IMG/VR virus record: IMGVR_UViG_3300033145_000274
Location: 61,080-125,079 of that record
Origin: a virus
Length of the DNA stretch: 64,000 nucleotides
Reading direction: 5' to 3' (one strand)
The notes under the pieces were generated by a model, which was not told the origin of the DNA, did not search any database, and saw nothing but the letters and a program-made list of their open reading frames with translations. Positions 15,428 through 61,317 of this stretch are shown here, one piece after another. A program made the translations under genes and the position numbers. How positions within the stretch are numbered: position 1 is the first letter of the stretch; each line of letters starts with the position of its first letter.

Positions 15428-16075
15428 ATGGCGCAACCAGGTCTACCACCACCAGCAATACATAGTCGTTTGTGGGGCATGAGAGCGTATCTAATAGGCG
15501 CAATGGACCGTGCGCCCGATGCAGGTGTCGAGTGGAGACGACGTATTACGCCCTTCCTGGCTAAGCTGGGCGTGGTTGTATTAGACCCGACCGACAAACC
15601 CATTGATATTGGTCTGGAGCGCAGCGAGGACCGTGAGTATCGTCAGAATCTCAAAGCGCTTGGGTGTTACGATGAATTGTCCAAAGAAATCAGGGCATTG
15701 CGCGTAGTTGACCTGGGCATGGTAGACATGAGTGATTTTCTTATAGTCCACATCGACACAGATATTCATGCGTGTGGTACGTATGAAGAAATCTCATGGG
15801 CAAATCGTATGAAAAACCCCATACTTGTTCATTGTGAGCAAGGAAAGGATGGCGTGTCGGACTGGTTATATGGCATGATTCCACATCAACATATGTTTTC
15901 CACATGGGTAGACATGTGTAAGTATTTATGGGAAGTACATACGGCACCGGCAGTAGAACACTACAAGCGATGGATGTTTTTCAATTATCAACAAATGGTT
16001 CCCCAAGTAACACCTGATGAATCACGTGCTTATCGGTGGGAATGGGACTCTTTAGCAAAGGAATTAGACAGATGA
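15428..16075 (+). CDS. nucleoside 2-deoxyribosyltransferase-like protein
   Basis: YLIGAMD, MVDMSDFLIV, CGTYEEISWA. Confidence 0.65.
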   Translation: MAQPGLPPPAIHSRLWGMRAYLIGAMDRAPDAGVEWRRRITPFLAKLGVVVLDPTDKPIDIGLERSEDREYRQNLKALGCYDELSKEIRALRVVDLGMVDMSDFLIVHIDTDIHACGTYEEISWANRMKNPILVHCEQGKDGVSDWLYGMIPHQHMFSTWVDMCKYLWEVHTAPAVEHYKRWMFFNYQQMVPQVTPDESRAYRWEWDSLAKELDR

Positions 16076-16263
16076 GTTTATTCGCATTTTTCTCACCTGG
16101 ACCTGCGGAAATTGCTATTATTTGTGTCATTGGCGTGATACTGTTCGGTACGCAATTGCCGAAGATAGCGCGTTCACTTGGACAATCCATTCCGGCCTTC
16201 AAAAATGGCCTAAAAGACATAAATGACGAAGTGAAAGACATACAGCAAGAACTCAAAACTTAA
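16072..16263 (+). CDS. tatA: twin-arginine translocase subunit TatA/E
   Basis: PGPAEIAIICVIGVILFG-TQLPKIARSLGQSIPAFKNGL: TM helix, FG hinge, amphipathic helix. Confidence 0.9.
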   Translation: MSLFAFFSPGPAEIAIICVIGVILFGTQLPKIARSLGQSIPAFKNGLKDINDEVKDIQQELKT

Positions 16264-16316
16264 TTGCATCGGTGTATATTAGAGTAGACTCATACACCAC
16301 TTAGGGGGAGCATATC

Positions 16317-16838
16317 GTGCGATTATTCATTTGTGTTATCTTGTTGTTGTTAAGCAGCGTCAACATTGCGTTTGGGGTAAATTATCCTGAAGGCACGGTT
16401 ATAGTATGGGAAAACGGCACGTATCTAAACGCCGTGCAACGCCAAACCGGTAGTAATAAGACACATGTTGGTATCATTTTGTATGATGGAGTACAGCCGT
16501 GGGTATATGAGGCATCGCGCCCTGACGTTCACCGCTACACATTCCAGGACTATGTCAAACGTGTTGATATACTTCATAAACAGCTACCTAAGCTACGCAT
16601 ACATTTTTTGACGCCTTTCACACCATATCATCCTACTCAGATAGTAGCGATGAAACGCTATGCACATGCTCAATTAGGGCGTCAATTTGGACTCAAGAGT
16701 TATATGCTGGGACGACCAATGGCAACACTTCATTGTTGTGAATACATTGGTAATATCCTGGCGCAGACAGGACGTTTTAGGACTATCGGACCAAGGGAAA
16801 CCCCAAAGACCATTTACGAAAAGGCCAGGAAACTATGA
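16317..16838 (+). CDS. permuted papain-like (YaeF/YiiX) amidase-like protein, secreted
   Basis: signal peptide; THVGI before LHCCEYI (His-before-Cys order). Confidence 0.65.
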   Translation: MRLFICVILLLLSSVNIAFGVNYPEGTVIVWENGTYLNAVQRQTGSNKTHVGIILYDGVQPWVYEASRPDVHRYTFQDYVKRVDILHKQLPKLRIHFLTPFTPYHPTQIVAMKRYAHAQLGRQFGLKSYMLGRPMATLHCCEYIGNILAQTGRFRTIGPRETPKTIYEKARKL

Positions 16839-17353
16839 CACCGCAACCACCAGCAAAAGTGTATGAATATCTATATCCCATGCCATCAATAGTCACAGAT
16901 ATAGTGGTGACTGTACTGTCTGATGATAAAGATGGAATCGAGCTATTGTTGATAGAACGCAAAAATGAACCATGGAAAGGTTGCTTGGCATTACCGGGTG
17001 GCTTTGTCGAGCCCAACGAACTCGTCATGGACGCCGCCAAGCGCGAATTGTTGGAAGAAACAGGTGTGGTGGCTCGGGATTTGGCATTCGTAGGATGGTA
17101 TGATGAACCCGACCGTGACCCACGAGACCGTATTATTTCCATGGCTTTTCTCATGTGTTGTGGTCATAACAAGCCAGAAGCTAAAGGCATGGATGATGTT
17201 TGTAATGCACAATGGGTGACAAAAGAACAGTTTGAAAATCTACCAGCAGAGCGCATAGCGTGTGACCATGCTACTGTTATTGGTGACGCAACGGGTTGGG
17301 GCAAATCACGTAGTGCAGTAAGACTATCTTGGGGTGGGGGTCATCAAACATGA
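16835..17353 (+). CDS. Nudix hydrolase (ADP-ribose pyrophosphatase-like)
   Basis: LPGGFVEPNE..AAKRELLEETG Nudix box; RDPRDR. Confidence 0.9.
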   Translation: MTPQPPAKVYEYLYPMPSIVTDIVVTVLSDDKDGIELLLIERKNEPWKGCLALPGGFVEPNELVMDAAKRELLEETGVVARDLAFVGWYDEPDRDPRDRIISMAFLMCCGHNKPEAKGMDDVCNAQWVTKEQFENLPAERIACDHATVIGDATGWGKSRSAVRLSWGGGHQT

Positions 17354-17736
17354 TATCACTAGAAAACGCCGCTCAACGAGTTGCCACGAACGATGACTCC
17401 GAAGTGTTCGTTGACCCACTGACACTTATGCTTATTTGCTCCATTCTTTCCACTGTTTTTAATGCCTTGCGCATGTGGTGTCAATGGAAGCAGAATCAAA
17501 AAGCCGATGGAAATACCATCAAAGAAGTATGTGCAAATCCACCCCTACGAATAAGACGTAGATTACACAGAGTTGTGCGCCAGCAAATGGGCGATGAGCA
17601 ATATAGGCGAGACGGAGATAGGGTGGTGACTAACATTCTAAAAGCTGGTGCTGATGCCTTTCCTGCTGAGCTTGAGTATTTGGCAAACCAGAATGTCTAT
17701 GTTAATCAGTGGGGTGAAACAGAACAGGAGATTTGA
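17350..17736 (+). CDS. hypothetical protein
   Basis: ORF with VDPLTLMLI hydrophobic segment. Confidence 0.55.
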   Translation: MISLENAAQRVATNDDSEVFVDPLTLMLICSILSTVFNALRMWCQWKQNQKADGNTIKEVCANPPLRIRRRLHRVVRQQMGDEQYRRDGDRVVTNILKAGADAFPAELEYLANQNVYVNQWGETEQEI

Positions 17737-17737
17737 C

Positions 17738-26494: not shown

Positions 26495-26554
26495 CTAAAC
26501 GGTCGGGCGACACGCTATTAAGCATCGCCCAATTGCTAGGGCCGTTTTTTAGAC

Positions 26555-26582
26555 TTGACATTTCTCATTTTGGTCGTAAAAT
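26555..26582 (+). promoter_or_regulatory. sigma70-like promoter upstream of Y RNA 4
   Basis: TTGACA-16nt-TAAAAT. Confidence 0.7.
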
Positions 26583-26629
26583 AAAAGTGAGTGGTGGAGG
26601 TGGGGAGCGAAAGCTCCCGTCTGTATCTT

Positions 26630-26761
26630 GGCGAATGTAATAAGACTTACATGTCCCGTTGTATGTTGCGAGTTCAAATCTCGTCCGTGCCGCTTTGTGG
26701 TGCGGTAGCTCAATTGGCAGAGCGACGACCCTAAAAAACGGTCTTATGTTGTTAGTCGCCA
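26630..26761 (+). ncRNA. YrlA-type Y RNA 4 (circularly permuted tRNA mimic)
   Basis: GGCGAATG 5' motif; T arm GCGAG-TTCAAAT-CTCGT, closed acceptor CCGTGCCGC-TTT-GTGGTGCGG, D arm TAGCTCAATTGGCAGAGC; GGCGA/TCGCC closure. Confidence 0.9.
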
Positions 26762-26796
26762 TTTAATTTGTTAAGGTGAGTAAAGGAAATAGGAAA

Positions 26797-27156
26797 ATGA
26801 AAACTTTTGGATTGGTAATTGGTGGACTGGTTTCTTTTGTTGGATTGGTTATTCTCTTGGGCGCATTGGGCCTCGGGGGAAGATGGGTCAACATGAAAGT
26901 CGAAGCCTGGTTTGCACCACGAGAGCAGAACATTCAACGTGAGGTCTTCGAGAATACGAAGTCATATAACGAAGCCAAGGAACAAGAGCTTGTTAAGCAC
27001 AAGTTTGAGTGGGAAAAAGCAAAGGGAAAAGATGACGTTGGCACTATGAAAGCTGTTGAGTCTGCCGTGCGTCATAAGTTTGCGGATTACGAGGATAATC
27101 GTTTGTCTCCTGAACTTCAGGAGTTTGTTCGTCACTGTAAATATGGAGGATTGTAA
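26797..27156 (+). CDS. membrane-anchored hypothetical protein
   Basis: N-terminal TM; RBS aggaaa. Confidence 0.7.
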   Translation: MKTFGLVIGGLVSFVGLVILLGALGLGGRWVNMKVEAWFAPREQNIQREVFENTKSYNEAKEQELVKHKFEWEKAKGKDDVGTMKAVESAVRHKFADYEDNRLSPELQEFVRHCKYGGL

Positions 27157-27158
27157 GG

Positions 27159-27722
27159 ATGAAGTGTGTACTGGATAACCTATTTCGATTGGTGGTACTA
27201 ACCCTGGTAATTGGTTGCCTGAGCGGCTGCGCAGCCGATAAACGACCGGCTCAAGATGCTGACCTGATTCAGCAAAAGGCAACTGCACAGTCGATGGCTG
27301 AAGCCCAACGTCAAATTGGAATGCCAGCTATCAAAAACTTCCAAGAAAAGAAATTGGCAAAGATGATTTTCGAGTTGCGTGACCAGGAGGACTACATATG
27401 TCATGCATACCTGATGAATCAGATGACTGGTAACATTGGTCAGTACCTTGGCAAATGCCTGGGTTATGGCTTGCCGTACTCAGTACAGTTTACAAACCCG
27501 GAAAAACCCGAGTTTGTTGACGGTGGTCAGTATGGAGCAATCAATCCATATACATTGCCACAAGCTGACCCCAATGGCTTGTTCATGCCTTCCGGCCTGA
27601 GTGCCACGTGGATTATGTTGTATGACAAGGAAAAAGAGGACTTTCGACCCGTTTATGTCGAGCCTTTAATCATTGTTAGTCCCTTCCCATTGGAAACTGG
27701 TATGTCAATGGAACCTACGTAA
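27159..27722 (+). CDS. putative lipoprotein
   Basis: lipobox LSGC after hydrophobic signal; GYGLPYSVQFTNP, DPNGLF. Confidence 0.75.
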   Translation: MKCVLDNLFRLVVLTLVIGCLSGCAADKRPAQDADLIQQKATAQSMAEAQRQIGMPAIKNFQEKKLAKMIFELRDQEDYICHAYLMNQMTGNIGQYLGKCLGYGLPYSVQFTNPEKPEFVDGGQYGAINPYTLPQADPNGLFMPSGLSATWIMLYDKEKEDFRPVYVEPLIIVSPFPLETGMSMEPT

Positions 27723-27723
27723 T

Positions 27724-27797
27724 GGGCGCTTAGCTCAGGGGTTTAGAGCATCACGTTGACATCGTGAAAGTCGCTGGTTCGATTCCAGTAGTGCCCA
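27724..27797 (+). tRNA. tRNA-Val(GAC)
   Basis: TCACG-TTGACAT-CGTGA. Confidence 0.93.
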
Positions 27798-27964
27798 CTG
27801 TGAATAACCCGACGACCGTTAATCTGAGGGTTCGGTTGAAGCTGGCCTGTTGGACGCAATTAGCCCGACATTACATGTAGTGTCTAAACCAGCCGCAACA
27901 CACGGAGAAGTCTGATATTTTGCTGGCTTTCAAACTCCGTTACCAAAGTCGAAAACCAGCGCGC

Positions 27965-28035
27965 GGGCGTGTAGTATAATGGAAGTGCATCTGGCTTACA
28001 TCCAGAAAGCGGGGGTTCAATTCCCTTCATGCCCA
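27965..28035 (+). tRNA. tRNA-Val(TAC)
   Basis: TCTGG-CTTACAT-CCAGA. Confidence 0.92.
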
Positions 28036-28060
28036 CTAAGCAGGATGCCCACTAAGCAGG
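28029..28060 (+). repeat. 16-bp tandem duplication overlapping tRNA-Val 3' end
   Basis: ATGCCCACTAAGCAGG x2. Confidence 0.9.
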
Positions 28061-28069
28061 AAAGCAAAC

Positions 28070-28285
28070 ATGATTAAATTTACCAGAGCCGAGTGCCTAC
28101 AACGCGAGCGTGACTGTACACACGCGCGTAGTCTCACATGCCTTCCAGGCTCAGGTAGTTATTATTTTTGTGATGATTGTGGTACTTACTTCTCCATGTT
28201 TGACTATCCAAAAACTACTCCGATGCGCATAGGCAAATGGAGTGACCACCTATTGGGGCGTGATAATGCCCGTAGACTTTGGTGA
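28070..28285 (+). CDS. small zinc-binding protein (paralog of 39912-40277)
   Basis: CTH..TCLPGSGSYYFCDDCG. Confidence 0.6.
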   Translation: MIKFTRAECLQRERDCTHARSLTCLPGSGSYYFCDDCGTYFSMFDYPKTTPMRIGKWSDHLLGRDNARRLW

Positions 28286-28530
28286 GAGTGGCCAAAATGA
28301 CAGATGACCCAGTTCAACGCGACGAACGTATCAAAAAGGGCGTGGTGCTGTCCACAGAACGTGGTCAGCTTTACGTAGCACAAGGACGTTATTATAGAAA
28401 GTGTGATGGGACCTCAAATGGCTGGTACGGCATGGGCTTTAATGGGGAGCGTGTGAAGGCCGATGTACCTGAGTTTGTAGCGTCTACCATAAATGCTTAT
28501 ATAACTAGTACATATGGAAGTGAGGATTAG
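28279..28530 (+). CDS. hypothetical protein
   Basis: ORF overlapping neighbours. Confidence 0.5.
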   Translation: MVRVAKMTDDPVQRDERIKKGVVLSTERGQLYVAQGRYYRKCDGTSNGWYGMGFNGERVKADVPEFVASTINAYITSTYGSED

Positions 28531-28964
28531 TGATGTTAAGGACTTTATTGTTTGCGCTAGTATTAACGTTGGGTTTTGCTAACCAATCATTAGCCATCGA
28601 GCCACTGATACTAATGCGCTATGGTGATGCCTACCATGCAATACAAAAGTATAATGTGAATGGTATCTTTGTTTTTACGGCCTCATGGTGTGAGCCGTGC
28701 AAAAAAATGAAGAAGGATACATGGACACCCTTGATGTCACAAATCAAGACCAAGTACATTATTTATTTTGTGGATGTAGAAGCTGAACCAGATATTGTTA
28801 AGAAATGGCAAGCCATGGGTATGGTTCAAAACATACCGGCATACGCCTTGACAACCAGGGGTGGGACGCGCATTATTTCATATGACGCTGGTTACCGCAA
28901 CAAAAGTAACCTAATGAAGTGGGTCAATGATGGTATTCTGTCATTGAAAAAGAGACGACGATAG
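28530..28964 (+). CDS. secreted thioredoxin-like protein
   Basis: signal peptide; FTASWCEPCKKM; NIPAY. Confidence 0.85.
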   Translation: MMLRTLLFALVLTLGFANQSLAIEPLILMRYGDAYHAIQKYNVNGIFVFTASWCEPCKKMKKDTWTPLMSQIKTKYIIYFVDVEAEPDIVKKWQAMGMVQNIPAYALTTRGGTRIISYDAGYRNKSNLMKWVNDGILSLKKRRR

Positions 28965-33185: not shown

Positions 33186-34097
33186 ATGAACGTATTAGTT
33201 ACAGGACACACTGGTTTCGTTGGAAGAAACCTAATGGAGTATTTGACTCAGCCCACAGATAAAAGTTACCATTTGTGTCAACCCAGCCGACATAATTTGC
33301 TAGACCCGATAGACACGCATCGCATGTTTGCCGAACACCTACCAGACGTTGTGGTTCATCTGGCCGCGCGCGTTGGTGGAATTAAGGACAACATGGAGAA
33401 TCCCGTTGATTTTTTCCTTGATAATATACAAATGGGCATGAATGTATTTAGTGCCTGTCACAAACATAAGGCATACTGTATTTTAGTCGGCACCGTGTGT
33501 AGTTATCCACGTGATTGTCCCATCCCATTTACAGAGATAGACCTGTGGAACGGAGACCCAGAACCTACAAATGGTGCGTACGCCGCAGCCAAGCGTGGAT
33601 TATACAAACTACTCGGGGCATATAACCAACAGCATGGCCTACGGGGCACCATACTACTTCCAACTAATATGTATGGCAAGTACAACAACTTTGACCCAGA
33701 TACTAGCCATGTGATACCAGCAATGATACGTAAGTTCAATGCGGGCACCGATGAAGTGGTTTTGTGGGGCACAGGACAGGCTACACGAGAGTTTCTACAT
33801 GTGACAGATTTTTGTCGTGCAGTATTGCATACCATACACACATGTCCAGATTATCCATTGCCAATGAATATCACTGGTGGTAGTGAAGTTTCCATGATGG
33901 AGTTGGCCTATATGATTGCGGATATAACTGGATTTATTGGTAAAATTAAGTTTGACCCAAGTAAACCCGATGGTCAACCACGTCGCAAGTCTAATGGAAG
34001 ACTTGCTAGAGATATGATACAGTATCAACCTACACACAATCTATATGATGGCATTACAGAACTAAACAAGTGGTATAAATCAGAGGTAAGCGCATGA
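33186..34097 (+). CDS. fcl: GDP-L-fucose synthase/ColC-like epimerase-reductase
   Basis: VTGHTGFVG, HLAARVGGI, YAAAK, PTNMYG, SHVIPAMIRKF, WGTGQATREFLHV, KPDGQPRR. Confidence 0.88.
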   Translation: MNVLVTGHTGFVGRNLMEYLTQPTDKSYHLCQPSRHNLLDPIDTHRMFAEHLPDVVVHLAARVGGIKDNMENPVDFFLDNIQMGMNVFSACHKHKAYCILVGTVCSYPRDCPIPFTEIDLWNGDPEPTNGAYAAAKRGLYKLLGAYNQQHGLRGTILLPTNMYGKYNNFDPDTSHVIPAMIRKFNAGTDEVVLWGTGQATREFLHVTDFCRAVLHTIHTCPDYPLPMNITGGSEVSMMELAYMIADITGFIGKIKFDPSKPDGQPRRKSNGRLARDMIQYQPTHNLYDGITELNKWYKSEVSA

Positions 34098-34291
34098 TAA
34101 CACGTAGACAAGCCATGTTGAGCGGGCTGGGTGCAACCCTAGCGCTGCCGTTTATGGGCATGGGTACGAGTGTTAGCCCAGAGTACCAGAACTTCTTGGG
34201 CGATAATCCGCAAACCTCCGATGTTGAATTGATTGTTGGTCTGGACCTGCGCACTAACGATACCATTGTTGTTAACCATCCCGTACTTTGA
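34094..34291 (+). CDS. small protein with twin-arginine-like signal
   Basis: MITRRQAMLSGLGATLAL. Confidence 0.55.
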   Translation: MITRRQAMLSGLGATLALPFMGMGTSVSPEYQNFLGDNPQTSDVELIVGLDLRTNDTIVVNHPVL

Positions 34292-34299
34292 GACGATAA

Positions 34300-34491
34300 A
34301 TGACACAATGCATTACCGCTATTGAAGGACCGATAGATATAGTACGTCGCTTGAACGACATGGGAGTGTACATTGGTCAAACCATACGTTCAATAGGTCC
34401 TGGATTGTGGCGTGTTGGCAATCAGTTTACATTGGTATATCGTTTACCTGATAGCGTAGTTATTAGTACAGAATGTAGCTCAGCTTGGTAG
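34300..34491 (+). CDS. small FeoA-like protein
   Basis: RRLNDMGVYIGQTI; overlaps tRNA-Pro start. Confidence 0.45.
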   Translation: MTQCITAIEGPIDIVRRLNDMGVYIGQTIRSIGPGLWRVGNQFTLVYRLPDSVVISTECSSAW

Positions 34492-34542
34492 AGCGCCTGG
34501 TCGGGGGCCAGGAGGTCGCTGGTTCAAATCCAGTCATCCTGA
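34469..34542 (+). tRNA. tRNA-Pro(GGG)
   Basis: CCTGG-TCGGGGG-CCAGG; canonical D loop. Confidence 0.9.
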
Positions 34543-34548
34543 CTCAAT

Positions 34549-34639
34549 AGAAGGTAGCCGAATACTGGTTCGTCGGAACTGATTGCTAATCAGTGCCGCA
34601 TCGCAAGGTGCGGTGAGGGTTCGATTCCCTTGCCTTCTG
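34549..34639 (+). tRNA. tRNA-Ser(GCT)
   Basis: ACTGA-TTGCTAA-TCAGT; long variable arm. Confidence 0.9.
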
Positions 34640-34663
34640 CTTATTGAGGGAAAGGTACAGTAT

Positions 34664-35239
34664 ATGAAACGCATTGCTATAGTAAGTAACAATCCACGGC
34701 AAAGCAATACGGCTAGCTTTGTAGATAGTTGTGATGAAGTTATACGCTTCTCTAATTGTGTAACACATGAGGGTTTTACTGGAAACAAAATTACTGCATG
34801 GGTAACACGTAGTAGATGTAATCATACCAATAGTATATATTCCCTGTATGCTGGGATAATGAAACGCGCAGTTTCACACGTCAACGTAGCATTTATAACA
34901 CATGGATTTCCAGAGTATAGTGGCGACGGTAAACTTATTGGTCCCGAAATTGTACCATATGATACATTTCCAGTGCAACAGCTTTGTTCATTAGACACAA
35001 TTCGATGCATACCTATAAACGCACGTGGTCTCACCTTGCTGCATCCAGGATTAAACCCAACTGTAGGATTTGTGTTTCTATGGAACATCCTACATCAACA
35101 ATGGTTCAAAAACTATGAAATTCATCTGATTGGTTGGGATTTTGTTGGTATTGACGACCCACATAAGATTGCATGGGAAGAACAAATTACTCGGACCTGG
35201 ATAAAACATGGATACTTTCAGTGTAACACGGGGGAATGA
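34664..35239 (+). CDS. GT29/sialyltransferase-like protein (paralog of 36676-37296)
   Basis: IAIVSN..FVDSCDEVIRFSN..GNKIT; NPTVG; LIGWDF. Confidence 0.55.
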   Translation: MKRIAIVSNNPRQSNTASFVDSCDEVIRFSNCVTHEGFTGNKITAWVTRSRCNHTNSIYSLYAGIMKRAVSHVNVAFITHGFPEYSGDGKLIGPEIVPYDTFPVQQLCSLDTIRCIPINARGLTLLHPGLNPTVGFVFLWNILHQQWFKNYEIHLIGWDFVGIDDPHKIAWEEQITRTWIKHGYFQCNTGE

Positions 35240-35243
35240 CCAC

Positions 35244-35984: not shown

Positions 35985-35999
35985 TGGAAATGTTTAGAC

Positions 36000-40567: not shown

Positions 40568-40576
40568 CTTATTGGG

Positions 40577-40604: not shown

Positions 40605-40619
40605 AGAGGTACACACGAC

Positions 40620-41166: not shown

Positions 41167-41604
41167 ATGGCTGGAAGTTTTAACAAAGTCATCTTAATGG
41201 GCAACATAACTCGTGACATAGAACTCAGATACACCCCTGGTGGTACTGCGGTAACTGACATGGGTTTGGCTGTTAACGAGAAACGAAAAAACGCCAGTGG
41301 AGACCTGGTAGAAGACACAACTTTCGTGGACGTGACCCTTTGGGGTCGCAATGCTGAGGTTGCAGTAGAATACCTCGGTAAGGGCTCACCGGTTTTGGTT
41401 GAGGGTCGCTTGAAGCTCGACCAATGGGAAACCGACGATGGTGAAAAACGTCAGAAGCTCAAGGTGGTATGCGACCGTATGCAAATGGTCGGTTCTAAGC
41501 GTGACAATGGTAATGGTAACGGCAATAACAAGCCTGCTTCCGCTCCCACGCCCGCATCAGATTCAGATGCACCCGACGCCGACCCTGATAAAGTGCCATT
41601 CTGA
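41167..41604 (+). CDS. ssb: single-stranded DNA-binding protein
   Basis: [25 protein letters not shown], acidic C-terminus ending VPF. Confidence 0.95.
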
Positions 41605-41679
41605 TTGTGTCAAACGGAATAATTATGAGTGGCATAGACTTGATGTTTGTGTCACTTATTTTTTTTGCTGGACATACAT

Positions 41680-42420
41680 ATGAAAGCCAAAGTTGCCTAT
41701 CTGTTTTTGACCTATGGTGATATTAACCATCCTCGTCTGTGGGAACGTTATTTCCAGGGACATGATGACACTACGGTAATTTGTTGTCATGCAGCAGATA
41801 GAGATAGTGTGTCTACTCCCTTCTTAAAGGACAACTTAATACCATATTGGGTATCTACAGATTGGGGTAAAATCGGCCTGGTCATTGCGCAGCTTGAACT
41901 GACACGCCACGCTTTGCGTGACCCACTCGTAGAACGCCTGGTGTTGTGCTCTGGGTCGTGTGTACCAATCAAAACTTATTCACGTGCATACGATTCCCTA
42001 TTCGAGCACGATAAGTCTTGGCTTACCATGCATCGTCAGTATATTGCACGCATGTCTAAGGTAACACACCTGGACCAGGCTAGTCATCGTAAGAATTCTC
42101 AATGGGTAATGCTAACTCGCCAACATGCCATGATGCTGGTGAGGTGTAATTACATATCTGATTTTACTCGGTGTGTGATTCCGGATGAACATTATGTCGG
42201 GTCGGTATTGGTACACATGGGACAACAAGAACACATTCTGCAACGTGAACAAACGTGCGCGCGTTGGCATACGATTTCACCAGTGCAAATGACACCTACG
42301 GAACATAGTATATTGACAAGCCATGATATACAATTCTTTAGGAATAGCTCGTCTATTTTAGCCCGTAAATTCAAAGCAGATAGTGATATTTCTGAACGCT
42401 GGAATGATATAGTAGCATAG
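41680..42420 (+). CDS. core-2/I-branching (GT14-like) glycosyltransferase
   Basis: KVAYLFLT, LCSGSCVPIK, SQWVML, PDEHYV, LARKF. Confidence 0.8.
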   Translation: MKAKVAYLFLTYGDINHPRLWERYFQGHDDTTVICCHAADRDSVSTPFLKDNLIPYWVSTDWGKIGLVIAQLELTRHALRDPLVERLVLCSGSCVPIKTYSRAYDSLFEHDKSWLTMHRQYIARMSKVTHLDQASHRKNSQWVMLTRQHAMMLVRCNYISDFTRCVIPDEHYVGSVLVHMGQQEHILQREQTCARWHTISPVQMTPTEHSILTSHDIQFFRNSSSILARKFKADSDISERWNDIVA

Positions 42421-42431
42421 GAGACTCCCGC

Positions 42432-43295
42432 ATGGGATTTATTAGTAGGGTACACGAACGTCTCAAAAGCGTTGAAAAATATAGCGTATTCAAAGATTTA
42501 CTGGCAGCCTATCAAACAGTATCGCAAGTGGGTGTACCGCGCCCAAAATTATATCTTAGCTTAACCAGACAGGACATACGTGATTTGGATTGGGCCAACA
42601 TTAGTCGTCGTGTACCAAATATATTCGTTATACGACCTAACATATTCTTAAATGCATCGCATGACTACTTCTTGAGAGACGACGGAAGTCACTTGTTGAT
42701 GAACTTTACAACGGGGACTCAGCAAACACGTATGGCCACCCTGGAACAACAAGTTAAAAATCTGGAACGGTTTCCAGCATCCGCTCGTCTCTTGTTTGAA
42801 GAATTTCCCTTAACTGCTTCTAACACATTACATTATCCAGCACATTATCGTGTACATGCCTTTCACGATACCATTGGCATGATACAGGTATCAACACCAG
42901 ACAATGTTTTCTGGATGGATGTCACTGGTCAGATATTAGATTTCACTAACGATAAAGATGTAAGTCACTTAGTACCAGAAACAAAAACACTAGAAGATTT
43001 ACGAGCCGCCGCCAAGACCATATCTATCGTCACGGAGTTACCATACATACGTATAGATTTTGTGTTGTCTACCAGAGGAGCGCTGTTTCGCAGCCTGGCC
43101 TGTATTCCTGGTGATGTTAGGTCAGAGGCATTTGCATGGCTATACTCTAAACATGACGAAACCATGGAAACACTATGGACACAAGCAGAAGATAAAATCA
43201 AAATTAGAAAGAACAATCGTGTCGTCAAACCACAACATGACAATAGTCAACGACCCAACCAAACCAACATCACCACGCCGGATGACAACGCCTGA
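42432..43295 (+). CDS. TupA-like ATP-grasp protein
   Basis: LFEEF, YRVHAFHD..IQV, LPYIRIDF. Confidence 0.5.
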   Translation: MGFISRVHERLKSVEKYSVFKDLLAAYQTVSQVGVPRPKLYLSLTRQDIRDLDWANISRRVPNIFVIRPNIFLNASHDYFLRDDGSHLLMNFTTGTQQTRMATLEQQVKNLERFPASARLLFEEFPLTASNTLHYPAHYRVHAFHDTIGMIQVSTPDNVFWMDVTGQILDFTNDKDVSHLVPETKTLEDLRAAAKTISIVTELPYIRIDFVLSTRGALFRSLACIPGDVRSEAFAWLYSKHDETMETLWTQAEDKIKIRKNNRVVKPQHDNSQRPNQTNITTPDDNA

Positions 43296-44256
43296 GATAG
43301 ACTCTAAGCCCCTGAATGGTTCGCTTTATTGTATATCGGCGTATTTTAATCCAATGGGGTTGTCCAATCGTTATGAAAATTTTTGTGTATTTTATCAACG
43401 CATGATGCAACATGATGCTAATGTGTTATTTGCTGAAATGGCACTGCACGAACGTGGCTTTGAATTACCTAAAGTCGTCAATGATAATCAGCTACCCGTA
43501 CAGGTATGCACAAAACATATCTTGTGGCAAAAAGAAAACCTGTTGTCGTTGTTGTTAAAACACTTGCCGGACGACTGTGATAAAGTATGTTGGGTAGACT
43601 CCGATATACTATTTCAACACCCAGACTGGCAAGCTGAAATACATGCGGCCCTACAAAAGTACCGAGTAATACAAGGTTATTCATTTGCCGCCATGCTACC
43701 CAAGGGCGTTGAGTTTGTAGATACTATTGAAATTGATAGTTTTCCAACGCGCTTTGACGATTGCGGTAAGGTGTATGGCTATATGTGCGGCATGTTACAT
43801 CCTAAAATTCAACAATGGAATGGTCATCCTGGGTTTGTGTGGGCGGCACGGCGTGAGGAATTAGAAAAAATCAACTTCTACAACGAATCTATCATCGGTG
43901 GTGGTGATTTGTTAATGGCCCGTGCCTCTACATACCATCATTATTCTGCTGATATTTGTGAACGCAATAGTCGTTTCCAACTAGCAAGCTATTTTCCATG
44001 GGCACAACGATGGTGTGATACCATGGGGTTTAGTGTTGGCTTTGCTAACAACTCAATTTATCATTTGTATCATGGCAAAATTAGCAACCGACACCTTGAT
44101 GCACGTCTGGAAACGTTGAAAAACCTAGACTTTGACCCATCACGCGACCTCATAATGCAAGATAACGGACTATGGTCAGTAACCGACGAGGGAGAACGGT
44201 TGTTGACCCCCGTACGACTATATTTTTCTAGTCGTCAAGAGGATGCCATAAGATGA
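43282..44256 (+). CDS. glycosyltransferase-like protein
   Basis: LWQKENLL, WVDSDILF, HPGFVWAAR, IIGGGDLL, YHLYHG. Confidence 0.6.
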   Translation: MTTPEIDSKPLNGSLYCISAYFNPMGLSNRYENFCVFYQRMMQHDANVLFAEMALHERGFELPKVVNDNQLPVQVCTKHILWQKENLLSLLLKHLPDDCDKVCWVDSDILFQHPDWQAEIHAALQKYRVIQGYSFAAMLPKGVEFVDTIEIDSFPTRFDDCGKVYGYMCGMLHPKIQQWNGHPGFVWAARREELEKINFYNESIIGGGDLLMARASTYHHYSADICERNSRFQLASYFPWAQRWCDTMGFSVGFANNSIYHLYHGKISNRHLDARLETLKNLDFDPSRDLIMQDNGLWSVTDEGERLLTPVRLYFSSRQEDAIR

Positions 44257-44798
44257 TACCCAACGACATTTGGTTTACAGCCGACACACATGCATGGCAT
44301 ACTAACATTATTGGTTATTGCACCAGGCCATGGACCGATTCCAATATCATGACACACGACCTGGCTGATAATATCAATGACCACGTTCCTGCTAATGCTA
44401 CATTATATCATTTGGGTGATTGGTCTTGGGGCAATGTCTTGTGGGTGGAGGGTTTTCGGTCAATGATTAACTGTAAGAATATCATATTGATATTGGGTAA
44501 TCATGACAAGCTCATTCGACAACAGGTATCCCTACAACGTTTATTTGTAAGCACTTCGGACCTTATAGAACTTAATTTATCACAGCGTCACAAAATTGTA
44601 ATGTGTCATTATGCCATGCGAGTGTGGAATGCATCATTTCATAGGTCATGGCATCTCTATGGTCATAGTCATGGAACACTACCTGATGACCCGCAGTCAC
44701 TAAGCTTTGATGTTGGTATAGACTGTTGGGACTATAAGCCCATTTCGTTAGACCAAGTTTATGATAAAATGAAAGGTAAAGCCAAGCATGTGTCGTGA
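44253..44798 (+). CDS. calcineurin-like metallophosphoesterase
   Basis: FTADTHAWH, YHLGD, GNHD, HLYGHSH, DVGID. Confidence 0.9.
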   Translation: MIPNDIWFTADTHAWHTNIIGYCTRPWTDSNIMTHDLADNINDHVPANATLYHLGDWSWGNVLWVEGFRSMINCKNIILILGNHDKLIRQQVSLQRLFVSTSDLIELNLSQRHKIVMCHYAMRVWNASFHRSWHLYGHSHGTLPDDPQSLSFDVGIDCWDYKPISLDQVYDKMKGKAKHVS

Positions 44799-45900
44799 TA
44801 CTATTGAGGCGTTGATACGTAAGGGTATACCAACTGTGTTTTATATAACCGGTGGTGGTTCAGGTGCTATCTATGAACTATTGCGATATGGTGGAGCATC
44901 ATCGTTTTTTCTGGAAGCTCAAGTACCATACGATAACCAATGCGTAACGGAATTACTGGGCGGATATAAGCCAGATAAATTCTGTGCGCAAAGTACGGCT
45001 AGCATGTTGGCGACCTGCGCCTATAAACGTGCCACTACCCTGACTGGCACACACTCCGTGATAGGTGTTGGGTCTACAGCCAAGCTACAAAAAATAGGTA
45101 CAGAACGTGATGGTAGAGAGCACATATTATACATAGCTATTCATAGCAAAAATCGTACTCTTACTTCACAGTTGAGGTTTTGTAATATGGTACGTGACCG
45201 TAGAGAAGAAGAAGAAACTGCCATGGGTATGATTGTCAAGGAATACTGCTACTTCCTTGGCATTCCATGCTTTACACCATCATTATATCAATCAGAGCAA
45301 CCATTGGTTGAAGACGTAACATCACCCTGGCACATGACTCCACATGTACAACCATTTGATATGGGCGCCATTACTTATAATCCACTCACTACTAAAAATC
45401 CGGTGATTTTTCCTGGTTCGTTCGACCCAGTACATAGTGGTCACATCAAGATGGCCGAACATGCCTATAAAATAACCAACAAGGCCGTGTGGTTTGAAAT
45501 CTCATTGACAAATTGTTCTAAGCCACCCATAGACTGGGTTTCACTCGTAAAACGCTGTGGTTACTTTGATGCACACAAAGATAATCCAGCATTTGCGGGT
45601 TTGATATTCACCGATGCCCCATTGTTTATGCACAAGGCACGTTTGTTTTACGAACCCATATTCATTACTGGACATGACACCGTATTACGCATTGACAACC
45701 CAAGATATTATAGTAGTAACATTGCTCATTGCGATTCCATCAATGATTTAATACAACAACGTGTACAATTTCTAGTATTTGACCGTAAGGGTTCTATGAA
45801 CGTGCCATTCCGACACCTGGGAATGGAAACTCTTTGTACTAACGTGATAGAGTATTTTGACGCAGGTGAAAATTCTACTGATTTAAGAGGAGGAACATAA
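44788..45900 (+). CDS. CinA-like/NadD-type nucleotidyltransferase fusion
   Basis: N-terminal TGGGSGA..EAQVPY (CinA-C-like); C-terminal FPGSFDPVHSGH and TGHDTVLRI. Confidence 0.8.
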   Translation: MCRDTIEALIRKGIPTVFYITGGGSGAIYELLRYGGASSFFLEAQVPYDNQCVTELLGGYKPDKFCAQSTASMLATCAYKRATTLTGTHSVIGVGSTAKLQKIGTERDGREHILYIAIHSKNRTLTSQLRFCNMVRDRREEEETAMGMIVKEYCYFLGIPCFTPSLYQSEQPLVEDVTSPWHMTPHVQPFDMGAITYNPLTTKNPVIFPGSFDPVHSGHIKMAEHAYKITNKAVWFEISLTNCSKPPIDWVSLVKRCGYFDAHKDNPAFAGLIFTDAPLFMHKARLFYEPIFITGHDTVLRIDNPRYYSSNIAHCDSINDLIQQRVQFLVFDRKGSMNVPFRHLGMETLCTNVIEYFDAGENSTDLRGGT

Positions 45901-45901
45901 A

Positions 45902-46507
45902 ATGGAAAGACGCAACTTTATCAAGTGGGTAGCCGCAATGTTGCCCGCTACGCTAGCTACTAAGATGGTGTCAAAACAAGCAGACGCGGCTCCGCAACCC
46001 ACACCAGCATCACAGGTGTACCCGAAGACTGTGAAAGCACCATCAATGTTGAAGGCTCGACGCCACACACAGATGGTGTACGACCAGGGCTTTTGTGACT
46101 GTCCGGCTGAACGTGGTATGGTCGTAGAATTTGCCAAGTTTATTCCCAGTCCTAGCGGCGGACAATATCCTATTGTAAGACCTGGCTCTCATAGCGGACA
46201 GCCGTTGGGGATATTATTGCAGGATGTAGTACACATAGATAATACAAAGTTGTGTAATGTAATATCAGACAGAATACCCGTTGGTGGACGGGTTGATATA
46301 GGCATAGACGGCTGGGTTATAGTTGGGCAATTTGATAAGCCCGTAGAAGACGGTGAACGGATATTTTATGATAGGGTAGGACGTTTAACCACCGTGTCAA
46401 CTGGACGACCTATTGGCGTGGCCATTGGTCCTAGTGATGCAGATAACTTTGTCAAAGTAAAGATACAACTCTATGTCAACACAAATGCCGAACTGCCCAG
46501 ACCTTAA
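45902..46507 (+). CDS. twin-arginine-signal protein with capsid-decoration-like domain
   Basis: MERRNFIKW; PLGILLQDVVHID, GGRVDIG, GRLT, DADNFVKVKI. Confidence 0.5.
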   Translation: MERRNFIKWVAAMLPATLATKMVSKQADAAPQPTPASQVYPKTVKAPSMLKARRHTQMVYDQGFCDCPAERGMVVEFAKFIPSPSGGQYPIVRPGSHSGQPLGILLQDVVHIDNTKLCNVISDRIPVGGRVDIGIDGWVIVGQFDKPVEDGERIFYDRVGRLTTVSTGRPIGVAIGPSDADNFVKVKIQLYVNTNAELPRP

Positions 46508-47579
46508 TTATACCGCACCCATCAACTCACTAGGATATGGCGTGGCGGGTTTGAATATCTTGCTAGCCTTAGCAGAGAAGGGTGTGAAGGTCAAATTATG
46601 GCCAATAGGACAGATAGACGCACATCCAAAGCACACGCTCGTATTACAGGAAGCCCTGGATACTCGTCATTGTTATCGAATCGACGCCCCCAGCTTACGT
46701 ATCTGGCATCAATATGACTTGGCACAACATGTAGGTAGCGGTGTCCGTGTGGGATTTCCTATATTTGAACTAGATAAATTTAATGCAATAGAACATGCGG
46801 AACTCTGTGCCATGGATGTCTTATGTGTGTGTTCAAACTGGGCTAAGGGCGTGGTGTTGAGAAACTGTCCAGAGATTCCCCAATTTGCTATTATCGTAAC
46901 ACCGCTGGGGGTGGACAGAACTACTTTTCATCACGAAAATGCTGGAGTATCGGACCCCAAATGGACGACGTTCTTAAATATCGGCAAGTGGGAATATCGT
47001 AAGGGGCATGACATTCTCATAGAGGCATTCAACAAAGCGTTCGAGCCCAAGGATAGAGTACGCCTCTGGATGATGAATCATAATCCATTCTTATCGAAAC
47101 AACAAACCAAAGAGTGGGAAGACCTGTATACCAAATCCAAAATGGGACATCGTGTGAGTATCCTACCACGGGTACAAGACCATGCCGAGGTGGCTAAGGT
47201 TATGTCCGAAGCTGATTGTGGTGTATTTCCATCACGTGCCGAGGGCTGGAATTTAGAGTTGCTTGAAATGATGTCAATGGGTAAACAAGTTATTACCACC
47301 AACTACTCTGCTCATACTGAATTTTGTACTACAGATAATGCACATCTCATTCCTATTGACGAATTAGAACATGCATATGATGGTCACTTTTTTACTGACG
47401 ACGACGCCGGTCAATGGGCGACTCTCGGTAGTACCCATGTGGATTGTTTAGTAGACCACATGCGCAACATTCACAAAAACAAACAGCAGATTAACCACAG
47501 TGGCATTGCTACCGCCAAGGAGTTTTCATGGGCAGCCACCGCACAAAAAATTCTAACAGTGGACCAAATTTGGGCTTGA
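46473..47579 (+). CDS. GT4-family glycosyltransferase
   Basis: GKWEYRKGHDIL, FPSRAEGWNLELLEMM. Confidence 0.88.
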   Translation: MSTQMPNCPDLNYTAPINSLGYGVAGLNILLALAEKGVKVKLWPIGQIDAHPKHTLVLQEALDTRHCYRIDAPSLRIWHQYDLAQHVGSGVRVGFPIFELDKFNAIEHAELCAMDVLCVCSNWAKGVVLRNCPEIPQFAIIVTPLGVDRTTFHHENAGVSDPKWTTFLNIGKWEYRKGHDILIEAFNKAFEPKDRVRLWMMNHNPFLSKQQTKEWEDLYTKSKMGHRVSILPRVQDHAEVAKVMSEADCGVFPSRAEGWNLELLEMMSMGKQVITTNYSAHTEFCTTDNAHLIPIDELEHAYDGHFFTDDDAGQWATLGSTHVDCLVDHMRNIHKNKQQINHSGIATAKEFSWAATAQKILTVDQIWA

Positions 47580-49128: not shown

Positions 49129-50547
49129 ATGGATTTCAATAATAACATTTGCATGTTGACAGATTCCTACAAAATGACCCACTGGAGACAATACCCACCA
49201 GGTACCACCAACGTATACTCTTATTTTGAGAGTCGTGATGGTGCTCGCTGGCGCAAGACGGTATTCTTTGGCCTGCAATACTTCTTGCAACGTTATCTAG
49301 TTGGTCAGGTCGTAACAGTTGATATGGTCGAGGATGCGGCCCGATATGCCAAGTTACACTTTGGTGCTCAGTTGTTTAACTATGATGGCTGGATGGACAT
49401 TGCTAAGACCCACAAGGGCCGCCTGCCCCTGTGTATTAAAGCCGTCCCAGAAGGCACGCCTGTTCCCGTTAGTAACGTAATGATGACCATTGAGGCTACC
49501 GACCCAGACCACGCATGGCTAACCAACTACATGGAGACGCTGTTGGTTAATGTATGGTATCCTTGTACGGTGGCTACTCAGAGCCGTGAGATGAAAAAGA
49601 TATGGCTACGCTACCTACAAGAGACCGGCGACCCACAAACAATTGATTTCAAACTACATGATTTTGGTTGTCGTGGTGTGACATGTCCCGAACAAGCCGG
49701 TTTGGGTGGCGCGGCCCACTTGGTAAATTTCAAGGGCACCGATACTCTGCCAGCAATCGTATTGCTTGACCAGTATTACGATGAAGAAATGGCTGGTTTT
49801 TCCATCCCCGCCAGTGAACACTCAACCATTACAAGTTGGGGCAAAGACAATGAAATAGACGCCATGCGTAATATGCTTCGGGCCTATCCAGAAGTCCCAC
49901 TAATTGCATGTGTAAGTGATAGCTATGATATTTGGGATGCCTGTGCCAATAAATGGGGTGGGGTACTCAAGGATGAAGTGTTAAGCAGGAAAGGCACACT
50001 GGTAATACGACCAGATTCGGGTGACCCCCCATCGACGGTCAAGCGTGTAATTACTACGCTTATGAAAGCCTTTGGGTATGAAACCAACGACAAGGGATAT
50101 GACGTATTGCCTCCACAAGTACGAGTAATTCAGGGTGATGGGATTGACTTTGAAATGATGCCCCGTATCCTAGAAACCATGAAAGAAGATGGACTGTCGG
50201 CTGATAATCTGGCTATGGGCTCTGGTGGTGGGCTTTTGCAAAAACTCAATCGTGATACACAAAGGTTTGCATTCAAGTGCTCGGCTATTGAGGTCAATAA
50301 CCAGTGGCGAGATGTCTATAAAGACCCGGTAACTGACGCTGGTAAAAGGTCCAAGCGTGGTAGAATGAAGTTAATCATGGAAAGAAGTAGTCATGGTTCA
50401 TGGCTTAGTACCACACCCGACCTAGACTCACGCACTGATATAATGCAAATTGTATTTCAAAACGGTCGTTTGAAGAAACAATATGACCTAGAAACCGTTA
50501 GAACAAACGCGACCATTCATCCGTGGGAGTTGACCGGAGTTCTCTGA
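49129..50547 (+). CDS. nadV: nicotinamide phosphoribosyltransferase
   Basis: TDSYKMTH, LHDFGCRG, PASEHST, VSDSYD, IRPDSGDP, IQGDG, GSGGGLLQK, KDPVTD.GKRSK. Confidence 0.95.
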   Translation: MDFNNNICMLTDSYKMTHWRQYPPGTTNVYSYFESRDGARWRKTVFFGLQYFLQRYLVGQVVTVDMVEDAARYAKLHFGAQLFNYDGWMDIAKTHKGRLPLCIKAVPEGTPVPVSNVMMTIEATDPDHAWLTNYMETLLVNVWYPCTVATQSREMKKIWLRYLQETGDPQTIDFKLHDFGCRGVTCPEQAGLGGAAHLVNFKGTDTLPAIVLLDQYYDEEMAGFSIPASEHSTITSWGKDNEIDAMRNMLRAYPEVPLIACVSDSYDIWDACANKWGGVLKDEVLSRKGTLVIRPDSGDPPSTVKRVITTLMKAFGYETNDKGYDVLPPQVRVIQGDGIDFEMMPRILETMKEDGLSADNLAMGSGGGLLQKLNRDTQRFAFKCSAIEVNNQWRDVYKDPVTDAGKRSKRGRMKLIMERSSHGSWLSTTPDLDSRTDIMQIVFQNGRLKKQYDLETVRTNATIHPWELTGVL

Positions 50548-55448: not shown

Positions 55449-55739
55449 ATGCATATTAGATGTGGATTTGTGAGCAATAGCTCGACGACTAGCTTTTCTA
55501 TCTTTGGTTCTATCACTTCGTTGAGTGAGGACGAATGCGATTTGCTTGCCGAGGCTAAGAAGCTGGGATTGGAAGTACACCATGGCTATGAAAACACTTA
55601 CCTGGGTGTATCATGGCATGAAATTGGTGATGATGAAACGGGCCGACAATTCATGGATAGGGTTGCAACAGCCGTGAATGAGTTAGACCCACAGGCAGAT
55701 GAATGTGGACATTGTGAAGAAGCATTTAGGGATGGTTAA
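55449..55739 (+). CDS. FVSNSS-motif family protein (copy 6)
   Basis: MHIRCGFVSNSSTTSF. Confidence 0.75.
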   Translation: MHIRCGFVSNSSTTSFSIFGSITSLSEDECDLLAEAKKLGLEVHHGYENTYLGVSWHEIGDDETGRQFMDRVATAVNELDPQADECGHCEEAFRDG

Positions 55740-60239: not shown

Positions 60240-60299
60240 CTGGCCTAAAGCATCCGCCTTTTAAGCGGAAAATCGTAAGTTCAAATCTCACCGGCCCTA
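60225..60299 (+). tRNA. tRNA-Lys(TTT), second copy
   Basis: TCCGC-CTTTTAA-GCGGA. Confidence 0.88.
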
Positions 60300-60302
60300 C
60301 TT

Positions 60303-60641
60303 TTAAGGCAATGTTCTAACCAATGTTCTAGGCAATACTATAAGAACAATCGAACCGAGCATAAAAAAGCAACCAGAAGACGCACGATTATTTGTGTTCA
60401 GCAAAACAGGGCTTGGATACTAAATCTAAAACAAGCTTCTGGATGTACACTGTGTACAGAAAATAATCCTTGCTGCTTAGACTTTCATCATGTGCAGCCA
60501 AATATCAAGGAAAAGGATATCAGTTGGCTCGCACATAATGGATATTCCAGGGCTAGATTACAAGTTGAAATAGATAAATGCATAATTGTTTGTGCTAATT
60601 GTCATAGGAAAATTCACGCAAATAACATGCATGTCCCCTGA
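60303..60641 (+). pseudogene. 5'-truncated HNH endonuclease
   Basis: open frame GCTLC..CLDFHH..EIDKCIIVCANCHRKIH with no upstream in-frame start before a stop inside the tRNA. Confidence 0.75.
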
Positions 60642-60703
60642 GTGTGACAGACGCACGATAGCCTCCTAAGCTATAAGAATAGGTGCAATTCCTATAGGGG
60701 ATA
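60633..60703 (+). tRNA. tRNA-Arg(CCT)
   Basis: ATAGC-CTCCTAA-GCTAT; T loop TGCAATT. Confidence 0.85.
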
Positions 60704-60723
60704 CTCACACAAGGAGCCCAACG

Positions 60724-61317
60724 GTGAAACTAAAACGACGTAAGTTTTTACAACTTGGTGGCTTGGCAACCTTTATGCCAGCGTGTGTGTGGTCTACCAA
60801 GGCTAAGACTAAAGTCAAACCTATCCAATCCAGAAAACACACGGCACTAAGCGTTCAGGTCGCAAAATCCCCCGTGTATCGTGGACCCAACATGGACCTT
60901 GGTCCCTATAAAGGCCACAGTGTAACCTATGACCCAACTGAATCCAACGACATGTGTCGTCGTTATTCCACATGGCCAGTCGTGGTAAACCTAATCATAA
61001 ATTATCAACACGGTGAAGAAACTTATGACACATTTGCATCTGGATTAACCGCAAAGGAAACCGTATCACGAGCCAATTTTTTGGTTAATCGCATAGGTTT
61101 TATGATGAGTCCTGACCAGTTATTTGCTGATGCACGGATTGACCCACTGTGTAAATATCGCCAAAGAGAAAAAGAATTCTACTGCGGTTTCTTACGTCAG
61201 AATTTGACACGACCATTGTTGTCTGACCTACACAACCTACATATTTTAGGACAAACATTCAAACTTTCCAGTATTGCACTACACAACCGTGATAAACAAA
61301 AAAGACCTAAAAATTGA
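60724..61317 (+). CDS. protein with twin-arginine signal
   Basis: KLKRRKFLQLGGLATF; RBS aaggag. Confidence 0.65.
   Translation: MKLKRRKFLQLGGLATFMPACVWSTKAKTKVKPIQSRKHTALSVQVAKSPVYRGPNMDLGPYKGHSVTYDPTESNDMCRRYSTWPVVVNLIINYQHGEETYDTFASGLTAKETVSRANFLVNRIGFMMSPDQLFADARIDPLCKYRQREKEFYCGFLRQNLTRPLLSDLHNLHILGQTFKLSSIALHNRDKQKRPKN

Follow-up and report, generated by a model that had tools for sequence, protein, structure and literature searches.

The twin-arginine translocation (Tat) system moves folded proteins, its signals follow the consensus S/T-R-R-x-F-L-K, and it can also carry signal-less partner proteins, known as hitchhiker export. In Bacillus subtilis, tatAd-tatCd are encoded with phoD, which places dedicated Tat components beside their cargo. 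Among viruses, huge phages carry auxiliary genes for host machinery, including tRNAs, tmRNA, NAMPT and others (PMC7162821), and one marine virus figure lists a TatC Pfam match without comment (PMC10564846). The Kuenenia encapsulin cEnc, from anammox Planctomycetes, is an HK97-fold shell with an N-terminal signal described as 'reminiscent of twin-arginine peptides' (bioRxiv 10.1101/085266). Neither a phage-encoded TatA, that is, a virus bringing its own pore subunit to the cell's route for folded proteins, nor a published equivalent of Tat-tagged capsid copies was found in the literature searched. Here we describe both in a stretch of 64,000 nucleotides (hereafter the window), which comprises bases 61080-125079 of the 125,079-bp linear IMG/VR virus record IMGVR_UViG_3300033145_000274 (69% complete by CheckV). 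The window encodes a putative TatA and five proteins with twin-arginine (RR) N-termini, and in three of the five RR open-reading frames (ORFs) the signal is attached to a copy or a segment of one of the phage's own capsid proteins. We refer to the record of this phage as G000, to related IMG/VR records as G002 and G003, to related metagenome or phage contigs by L-numbers (L114-L127, L137 etc.) and to proteins by P-numbers, P0003, P0004 and P0005 being the proteins encoded at 39912, 45902 and 60724.

The tatA gene (positions 16072-16263, + strand) encodes 63 amino acids. A single transmembrane (TM) helix opens with PGPAE and is followed by an FG hinge, an amphipathic helix (QLPKIARSLGQSIPAFKNG) and a tail that is short and acidic. 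The initial annotation had called tatA at this position, and the call is borne out by a match to PF02416 (TatA_B_E) at 45.2 bits (cut-off 21). The ATG at 16072 overlaps the stop of the upstream gene (ATGA), and orthologues likewise begin MSLFAF. In an alignment, 14 phage-type sequences keep the features of the architecture PGPAE-IAIICVIGVILFG-TQLPKIARSLGQSIPAFKNG-acidic tail, with the TM glutamate, the FG hinge and the amphipathic helix all preserved; judged by this family match and architecture, the ORF at 16072-16263 is a genuine TatA/E homologue. In a tree, the 14 phage-type TatA split from 12 cellular TatA with 100% SH-aLRT support, and they share the signature LFG[ST]QLPK[IV]ARS.G.AIPSF with a short tail. 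A metagenome scan with the TatA alignment recovered phage-type TatA in the gene order of the window on L114-L120, L122, L123 and L126 (54-65% identity), the recurrent order in at least ten contigs being a homologue of the gene at 15362-16075, then tatA, followed by a C92 amidase homologue (seven contigs) and a NUDIX gene (several). Because it is syntenic in at least ten phage contigs, tatA is judged to belong to the phage; it was probably captured from a Planctomycetes-Verrucomicrobia-Chlamydiae (PVC)-type host, and a clade of phages has retained it.

Host contamination or a chimeric assembly was considered as a source of tatA and was ruled out by the conserved phage synteny and the phage-specific sequence signature. 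A word-based search of 5.8 billion proteins returned one relative, P0006, which is encoded on a 171-kb contig and is 63% identical. When 50,697 GenBank phage records were searched with TatA by tblastn, just two weak matches appeared, both to unannotated Staphylococcus records, and IMG/VR scans with single queries (TatA, P0003, the 44788 ORF and a back-translated TatA pattern) gave no match. In G003, a record of 172,878 bp (100% complete) with a large terminase subunit (TerL) 69% identical to that of G000, the TatA is 61% identical to the G000 TatA and lies behind a homologue of the same upstream gene; between the two genes, pN (nonsynonymous differences) is 0.23 and pS (synonymous differences) is 0.87 (saturated). 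In G002 the tatA site is empty while the flanking genes are present, yet the two relatives are at a similar distance from G000 (major capsid protein 75% identical in G002 vs. 76% in G003). The 125,079-bp record, ~69% of the phage genome, holds no TatC and no second TatA/B.

The RR N-termini read MITRRQAMLSGLGATLALPF at 34094, MKRRGFLKALGLGATTAATVP at 39640, MFDRRRFLKAIGLSVPAIAIIPLV at 39912, MERRNFIKWVAAMLPATLATKMVSKQADA at 45902 and, from a GTG start, KLKRRKFLQLGGLATFMPAC at 60724, and these ORFs, like tatA, were all found, on the + strand, at the positions given in the initial annotation. Across the 107 ORFs of the window (19,688 amino acids) the pattern RR.F[LIVM][KQR] occurs four times, each at residue index 2-4, against 0.10 occurrences expected by chance anywhere and 0.004 at N-termini, and four of the five RR signals first reported (39640, 39912, 45902 and 60724) fit the strict motif RR.F[LI][KQ]. 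The Tat-signal model TIGR01409 (cut-off 16.7 bits) matches 39640 at 17.6-18.5 bits and falls under the cut-off on 39912 and 45902 at 12.5-13.3 bits; it has no match for 34094 and 60724, short models of this kind scoring weakly. A hydrophobic h-region is present in all five. Read by eye, a clear A-x-A site occurs in 45902 alone (ADA|A), 60724 has an imperfect lipobox-like MPAC, and 39912 shows no clear signal-peptidase site. A plausible ribosome-binding site precedes four of the five, those of 45902 and 60724 being the strongest; that of 39912 is weak, but its ATGA is shared with the stop of 39640. A loose filter for RR plus a hydrophobic stretch gave many false positives and did not separate G000, G002 and G003, the strict motif and the hidden Markov model (HMM) alone being discriminating. 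Far above chance in number and position, the RR N-termini are, on their motifs, genuine Tat-type signals, and the proteins that bear them are predicted to be exported.

Other kinds of leader also occur in the window. About seven more ORFs carry Sec-type or lipoprotein-type signals (16317, 18390, 27159, 28530, 38754, 50595 and 51741), an unusually large set of predicted exported proteins beyond the Tat set. The ORF at 28530-28964 joins a Sec-type signal (MMLRTLLFALVLTLGFANQSLA) to a thioredoxin domain with WCEPC (PF00085, E 2e-9) and resembles a phage-encoded periplasmic thiol-disulfide oxidoreductase. Separately, the ORFs at 4462-4860 and 55449-55739 both begin with an M..R.GFVSNSS tag, and there are therefore at least two families of N-terminal tag on otherwise unrelated small phage proteins.

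The identity of the cargo was absent from the initial annotation: three of the RR proteins are capsid-derived copies or pieces, a fourth copies another phage protein, and full-length RR-tagged capsid paralogues form a clade of their own. The route to the capsid was a tblastn of the RR proteins against the related records, which hit a late protein of 335 amino acids whose G000 orthologue lies at 26542-27552 of the record (- strand), flanked by the cement gene and the tail genes and not far from TerL. Its profile matches the 6wkk major capsid protein at E 1.5e-11, and an AlphaFold2 (AF2) model built from a 93-sequence alignment (pLDDT 92.9) gave Foldseek top matches that are all HK97-fold phage capsids, including HK97 itself (1ohg), at probability 1.00. 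The late protein is thus confirmed as the HK97-fold major capsid protein (MCP).

The RR ORF at 34094-34291 (+ strand, 65 amino acids; its start overlaps the stop of an epimerase gene) consists of the Tat-type signal (TRRQAML...) and a 33-residue MCP copy: its residues 27-59 match MCP residues 256-292 with 68% identity over 37 amino acids (BLASTP, E 3e-12; Smith-Waterman score 109, shuffled maximum 48). Sixteen of 25 identical residues use different codons (pN 0.14, pS 0.86). In the ORF at 39640-39912 (+ strand, 90 amino acids), the Tat signal (KRRGFLK) is followed further on by a stretch, residues 61-81, that matches MCP residues 76-96 (62% over 21 amino acids, BLASTP E 2e-6; Smith-Waterman score 67, shuffled maximum 50), a segment that lies in the AF2 model between the N-arm helices and the long spine helix, i.e. 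the E-loop region. The third, at 45902-46507 (+ strand, 201 amino acids, strong Shine-Dalgarno), carries its Tat signal (ERRNFIK...ADA|A) and a Pro-rich linker in front of a full-length paralogue of the capsid cement protein, which is encoded beside the MCP at 27605-28099 of the G000 record (- strand, 164 amino acids). The alignment (28% over 163 amino acids, BLASTP E 9e-8) starts at residue 49, after 48 residues of signal and linker, and spans the whole cement protein from its Met onwards. Two of four members of this cement family match PF22758 (Phage_cement; best E 2.7e-4), PF09956 matches P0004 below its cut-off (E 0.053), and PDB sequence searches with the cement protein and with a 375-amino acid late protein returned nothing meaningful. 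The paralogy of 45902 to the gene beside the MCP is solid on this end-to-end alignment.

Among comparisons with 23 late proteins, Smith-Waterman scores rose above every shuffle for 34094, 39640 and 45902 only. Half or more of the codons for identical residues differ between fragments and MCP, and in the four segments compared pN is 0.14-0.35, while pS is >0.8 in three and 0.40 for 39640; because the codons differ and pN is low, the similarity between fragments and MCP appears old and kept at the protein level.

The ORF at 39912-40277 (+ strand, 121 amino acids) joins a Tat signal (RRRFLK) to a four-Cys zinc-ribbon-like domain, which makes the initial description of the cargo as partly Zn-binding plausible for this protein only. 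It has an untagged, signal-less paralogue in the window (28070-28285, + strand, 71 amino acids, likewise zinc-ribbon-like) with which it shares the four-Cys motif and 49% identity over 35 amino acids (BLASTP, E 8e-12). Against the 23 late proteins it has no significant match, a score of 50 with a 762-amino acid protein being shuffled noise, and because it has no clear signal-peptidase site it may stay membrane-anchored. Finally, the ORF at 60724-61317 (+ strand, GTG start with AAGGAG upstream) has a Tat signal (KRRKFLQ), the lipobox-like MPAC and an orphan mature part of 170 amino acids. It has no word-sharing homologue among 5.8 billion proteins, no Pfam, NCBIfam or PHROG match and no resemblance to the late proteins; its Atlas feature matches are to Tat-signal clusters at 0.85, which is a lead only. 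The RR ORFs from 34094 to 45902 are interspersed with glycan-building genes (33186-47579), namely an NAD epimerase, two cytidylyltransferases, a Core-2/I-branching enzyme, a TupA-like ATP-grasp protein and a GT4 glycosyltransferase, and a short radical SAM/SPASM enzyme lies within the same region at 35208-35984.

The initial annotation proposed a survey of tatA and RR ORFs across phages as a check, and among related records the two occur together. Across 17 records (G000 and 16 related IMG/VR records), TatA is present in G000 and G003 only, and TIGR01409 matches are likewise confined to G000 and G003. G003 encodes three RR proteins, MERRGFLKAAAAALLAPLALV, MQRRNFLKACVAALLAPAALV and MDRRGFMATWIGIALAPLAAAKA, which carry pieces of its own MCP (residues 201-236 and 312-320; 115-143 and 66-75; 68-95); the pieces differ from those in G000, the design is alike. 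G002 has no RR ORFs and no capsid fragments. On two short groundwater contigs, L121 (554-1685) and L125 (333-1236), a phage-type tatA, placed inside the phage clade by the tree, is overlapped or directly followed by one or two RR-signal genes, which begin MPLGRRGFLGGLFGLGALPF and MGNDRRNFISSILGG and have no similarity to the RR cargo of the window. TatA and RR signals thus co-occur among relatives, which fits a phage boosting Tat export for its own cargo.

Tagged capsid proteins also form a wider family. A phmmer search with the MCP against 1.84 billion cluster representatives gave 577 matches, and among the 98 full-length matches in the best 150 of these, 15 start with a Tat signal; TIGR01409 matches seven of ten RR-MCP paralogues tested. 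In a tree of 101 MCPs these full-length tagged paralogues (330-400 amino acids) group as one clade (SH-like support 98-99; a single state change). One of them, P0237, is encoded directly after recA in a replication module, on IMG/VR contigs of up to 89 kb, with two further RR ORFs close by that bear segments of the MCP and of the 375-amino acid late protein (G000 record 16540-17667). On L137 (5974-11137), where the replication module contains three RR genes, recA is followed immediately by a full-length capsid paralogue, and the remaining two genes are mosaics that include parts of these two late proteins. The DnaB helicase near these RR genes carries a LAGLIDADG intein. The short pieces in G000 and G003 are closest to each phage's own MCP and not to the RR-MCP clade. 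G003 also encodes, at 87421-87945 (- strand, L090) and directly behind a 344-amino acid ORF, a truncated, signal-less C-terminal half of a capsid paralogue that is nearest to the RR clade (P0229) and may be a broken RR-MCP gene. A search for shorter MCP relatives found mainly contig-end fragments of true MCPs, with no RR fusions among the 120 matches listed.

The likely host is a member of the Planctomycetota, as far as gene similarity indicates. In a scan of one genome per prokaryote species, the closest cellular TatA (≤58% identical) were mostly from Planctomycetota (Planctomycetaceae, Isosphaeraceae, Pirellulaceae, Lacipirellulaceae), with one Chthoniobacterales genome also present; Planctomycetota and phage TatA share an N-terminal LFAF[FG]xPGPxE, and TatC was present in all five Planctomycetota genomes with the nearest TatA that were checked. 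Several points count against this assignment: the genome scan was seeded by motif patterns and is therefore biased, the phage MCP was not found in 301 sampled Planctomycetota genomes, which gives the host call no prophage support, and similarity of TatA and of the C92 amidase is all that the call draws on. As a separate observation, two cellular, planctomycete-type contigs (L124:9346-10180 and L127:885-1522, GC content 0.58-0.63) contain tatA as a tandem pair whose products have long Pro/Glu-rich tails, a feature missing from phage TatA.

Taken together, these observations make it probable that the phage TatA enlarges the Tat capacity of the host to export tagged copies of virion proteins. The tagged proteins would be made from the non-structural arm and would fold or bind metal in the cytoplasm, and their RR signals would then dock on the host TatC receptor. 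The phage TatA would add to the host TatA pool, which may be limiting for Tat throughput, as the co-occurrence suggests, and extra cargo might thereby cross the membrane late in a failing cell. The 45902 cargo is predicted to reach the periplasm and to be cleaved at the A-x-A site, 39912 to stay membrane-anchored and 60724 possibly to be lipid-anchored. Since Tat moves folded proteins, it would be a fitting route for such cargo: HK97-fold and cement domains, like a metal-bound ribbon, probably fold ahead of export. The boosting of Tat export for phage cargo, as first proposed, hence fits the joint occurrence of TatA and RR signals, export itself being a prediction. A more specific scenario is offered tentatively, as one possibility: a phage lineage, probably infecting Planctomycetota, sends early-made, Tat-tagged copies and mosaics of virion proteins through a TatA-reinforced Tat system, either as bait against capsid-recognising host factors or as a periplasmic capsid-like layer that protects or marks the infected cell.

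Some of the evidence pulls the other way. Just two full records with TatA underlie the co-occurrence, and of the 15 records without TatA, 11 are <90% complete. The TatA scores 47 bits against TIGR01411, under the stricter cut-off of that model (53.9). The fifth RR signal of the initial annotation, RRQAML at 34094, is a looser variant outside the strict motif and has no HMM match. The selection estimate is biased in that the best-preserved stretch alone is alignable, and the short capsid pieces could be decaying remnants.

The tagged copies might also act by removal of a partner. They would bind a cytoplasmic protein that recognises the genuine phage proteins, e.g. a host immune sensor of capsid, and the Tat signal would draw the complex to the membrane or out of the cytoplasm before the late proteins are made, TatA giving the capacity for bulky complexes. 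Every cargo of recognisable origin copies a signal-less phage protein, the fragments resemble the phage's own MCP more than the old RR-MCP clade, as mimicry of the current capsid needs, and turnover between G000 and G003 has been rapid, with different pieces in a design that is alike. Moreover, none of the tagged genes is in the late module (in the P0237 phage they are part of the replication module), and the hitchhiker export that such removal would use is established for Tat. However, there is no known partner, no defence system was identified in any host, and a sensor of folded HK97 protein may miss short linear pieces. The reading is purely inferential and we consider it unlikely.

We are also doubtful that 34094 and 39640 are non-functional leftovers of a full-length Tat-tagged capsid paralogue, with TatA serving the intact cargoes (45902, 39912 and 60724) or other proteins. 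Decay of this kind would accord with the age of the RR-MCP clade, with the resemblance of the 39640 and 34094 signals to those of P0234 and P0230/P0249, and with the truncated, signal-less paralogue in G003 that is nearest to that clade. Yet the pieces themselves are nearest to the phage's own MCP, and both ORFs are intact, with canonical signals and ribosome-binding sites. The low pN (0.14-0.35) argues in the same direction, as do the three such ORFs kept in G003 and the two mosaics beside a full-length copy in the P0237 phage.

The genes around tatA bear on a further alternative. Its upstream neighbour (15362-16075, + strand) weakly resembles nucleoside 2-deoxyribosyltransferases (PF05014, E 0.0017, below cut-off), and a homologue of it lies directly upstream of tatA in G003, L114-L120, L122 and L126. 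The downstream neighbour (16317-16838, + strand) combines a Sec-type signal peptide (MRLFICVILLLLSSVNIAFG) with a permuted papain-like amidase (YiiX/Peptidase_C92); it has no Pfam match, an ESM Atlas feature score of 0.96 to Peptidase_C92 clusters, commonest in Planctomycetota, and homologues that follow tatA in L114, L115, L118, L119, L122, L123 and L126. TatA can thin or weaken membranes, and the phage TatA might therefore be a holin-like, membrane-weakening partner of this Sec-exported amidase in lysis instead of an export booster. Its small size and single TM helix would suit that role, as would the adjacency of the amidase gene in at least seven contigs. We regard it as improbable: the G003/L116/L117 lineage retains tatA without the amidase, every residue class needed for Tat function is conserved, tatA is surrounded by nucleotide-metabolism genes, and its presence among relatives goes with that of RR-signal ORFs, with RR genes lying right next to it in L121 and L125. 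The suggestion made at the outset that the RR peptides are decoys which occupy and jam host TatBC, shutting down host Tat export, found no support and is scarcely credible, for although the phage makes several strong RR signals and two of the cargoes are very short (65 and 90 amino acids), these phages also supply TatA, a pore subunit that would aid transport, 45902 combines an AxA-type cleavage site with an entire folded domain, conservation extends to the mature parts, and full-length tagged capsid paralogues exist.

The setting of these genes is a large, tRNA-rich uncultured phage. Every long ORF of the window is on the + strand, and 30 tRNA genes and one tmRNA-like gene were detected among the ORFs (ARAGORN). 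The other half of the record is the late module on the - strand, with the large terminase (phrog_2, E 1e-26) and proteins without a family match. Close cultured relatives are lacking, as the best matches in a tblastn with TerL are just 21-26% identical, and 519 IMG/VR relatives were retrieved with TerL. Among sequencing runs, a single sediment metagenome was listed as sharing words with the phage (share 0.07), and no RNA run was listed. The window also encodes a Ro60/TROVE-like protein and a NAMPT (12160-13830 and 49129-50547); the best cultured match of the former is in Myxococcus phage Mx1 (37%), and the latter is ~50% identical to the NAMPTs of many large phages.

The preferred reading, in which a phage TatA reinforces host Tat export of tagged virion-protein copies, resembles several known systems in part. 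As with the auxiliary genes of huge phages, a host pathway would be supplemented with the phage's own copy of a limiting component. As in the tatAd-tatCd/phoD arrangement of B. subtilis, a TatA-family gene travels with RR-protein genes, directly adjacent in L121 and L125; the phage differs in having TatA alone, with no TatC in the ~69%-complete record, and in its cargo genes, which are scattered over 45 kb and encode copies of virion proteins, not enzymes. The likeness to hitchhiker export (hydrogenase small and large subunits, DmsAB, PaoABC) is conceptual only, in that a signal-bearing protein could carry a signal-less partner, whereas no partner of the phage RR cargo is known. Why a virus would export parts of its capsid from the cytoplasm, where that capsid is assembled, is not obvious; should the tagged copies prove to be decoys, bait or a periplasmic lattice, they would add a new level to phage-host conflict, or to the remodelling of infected cells, in a phylum whose phages have scarcely been described. 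Cement and decoration proteins (PF22758: Pam3 gp6 and E217 gp24; PF09956) are matched in kind by the mature part of 45902, which aligns end to end with the phage's own cement protein, but the known ones lack an export signal and do their work in the cytoplasm, on the surface of the capsid. The nearest published exported HK97-fold protein is cEnc, also in Planctomycetes, which is a cellular encapsulin with a cytochrome fusion and a printed leader without an RR pair (bioRxiv 10.1101/085266). The phage proteins, in contrast, bear canonical RR motifs and are related to a true capsid protein, either as its paralogues or as short pieces of it, and such natural Tat signals on HK97-fold proteins could serve to export capsid or encapsulin shells.

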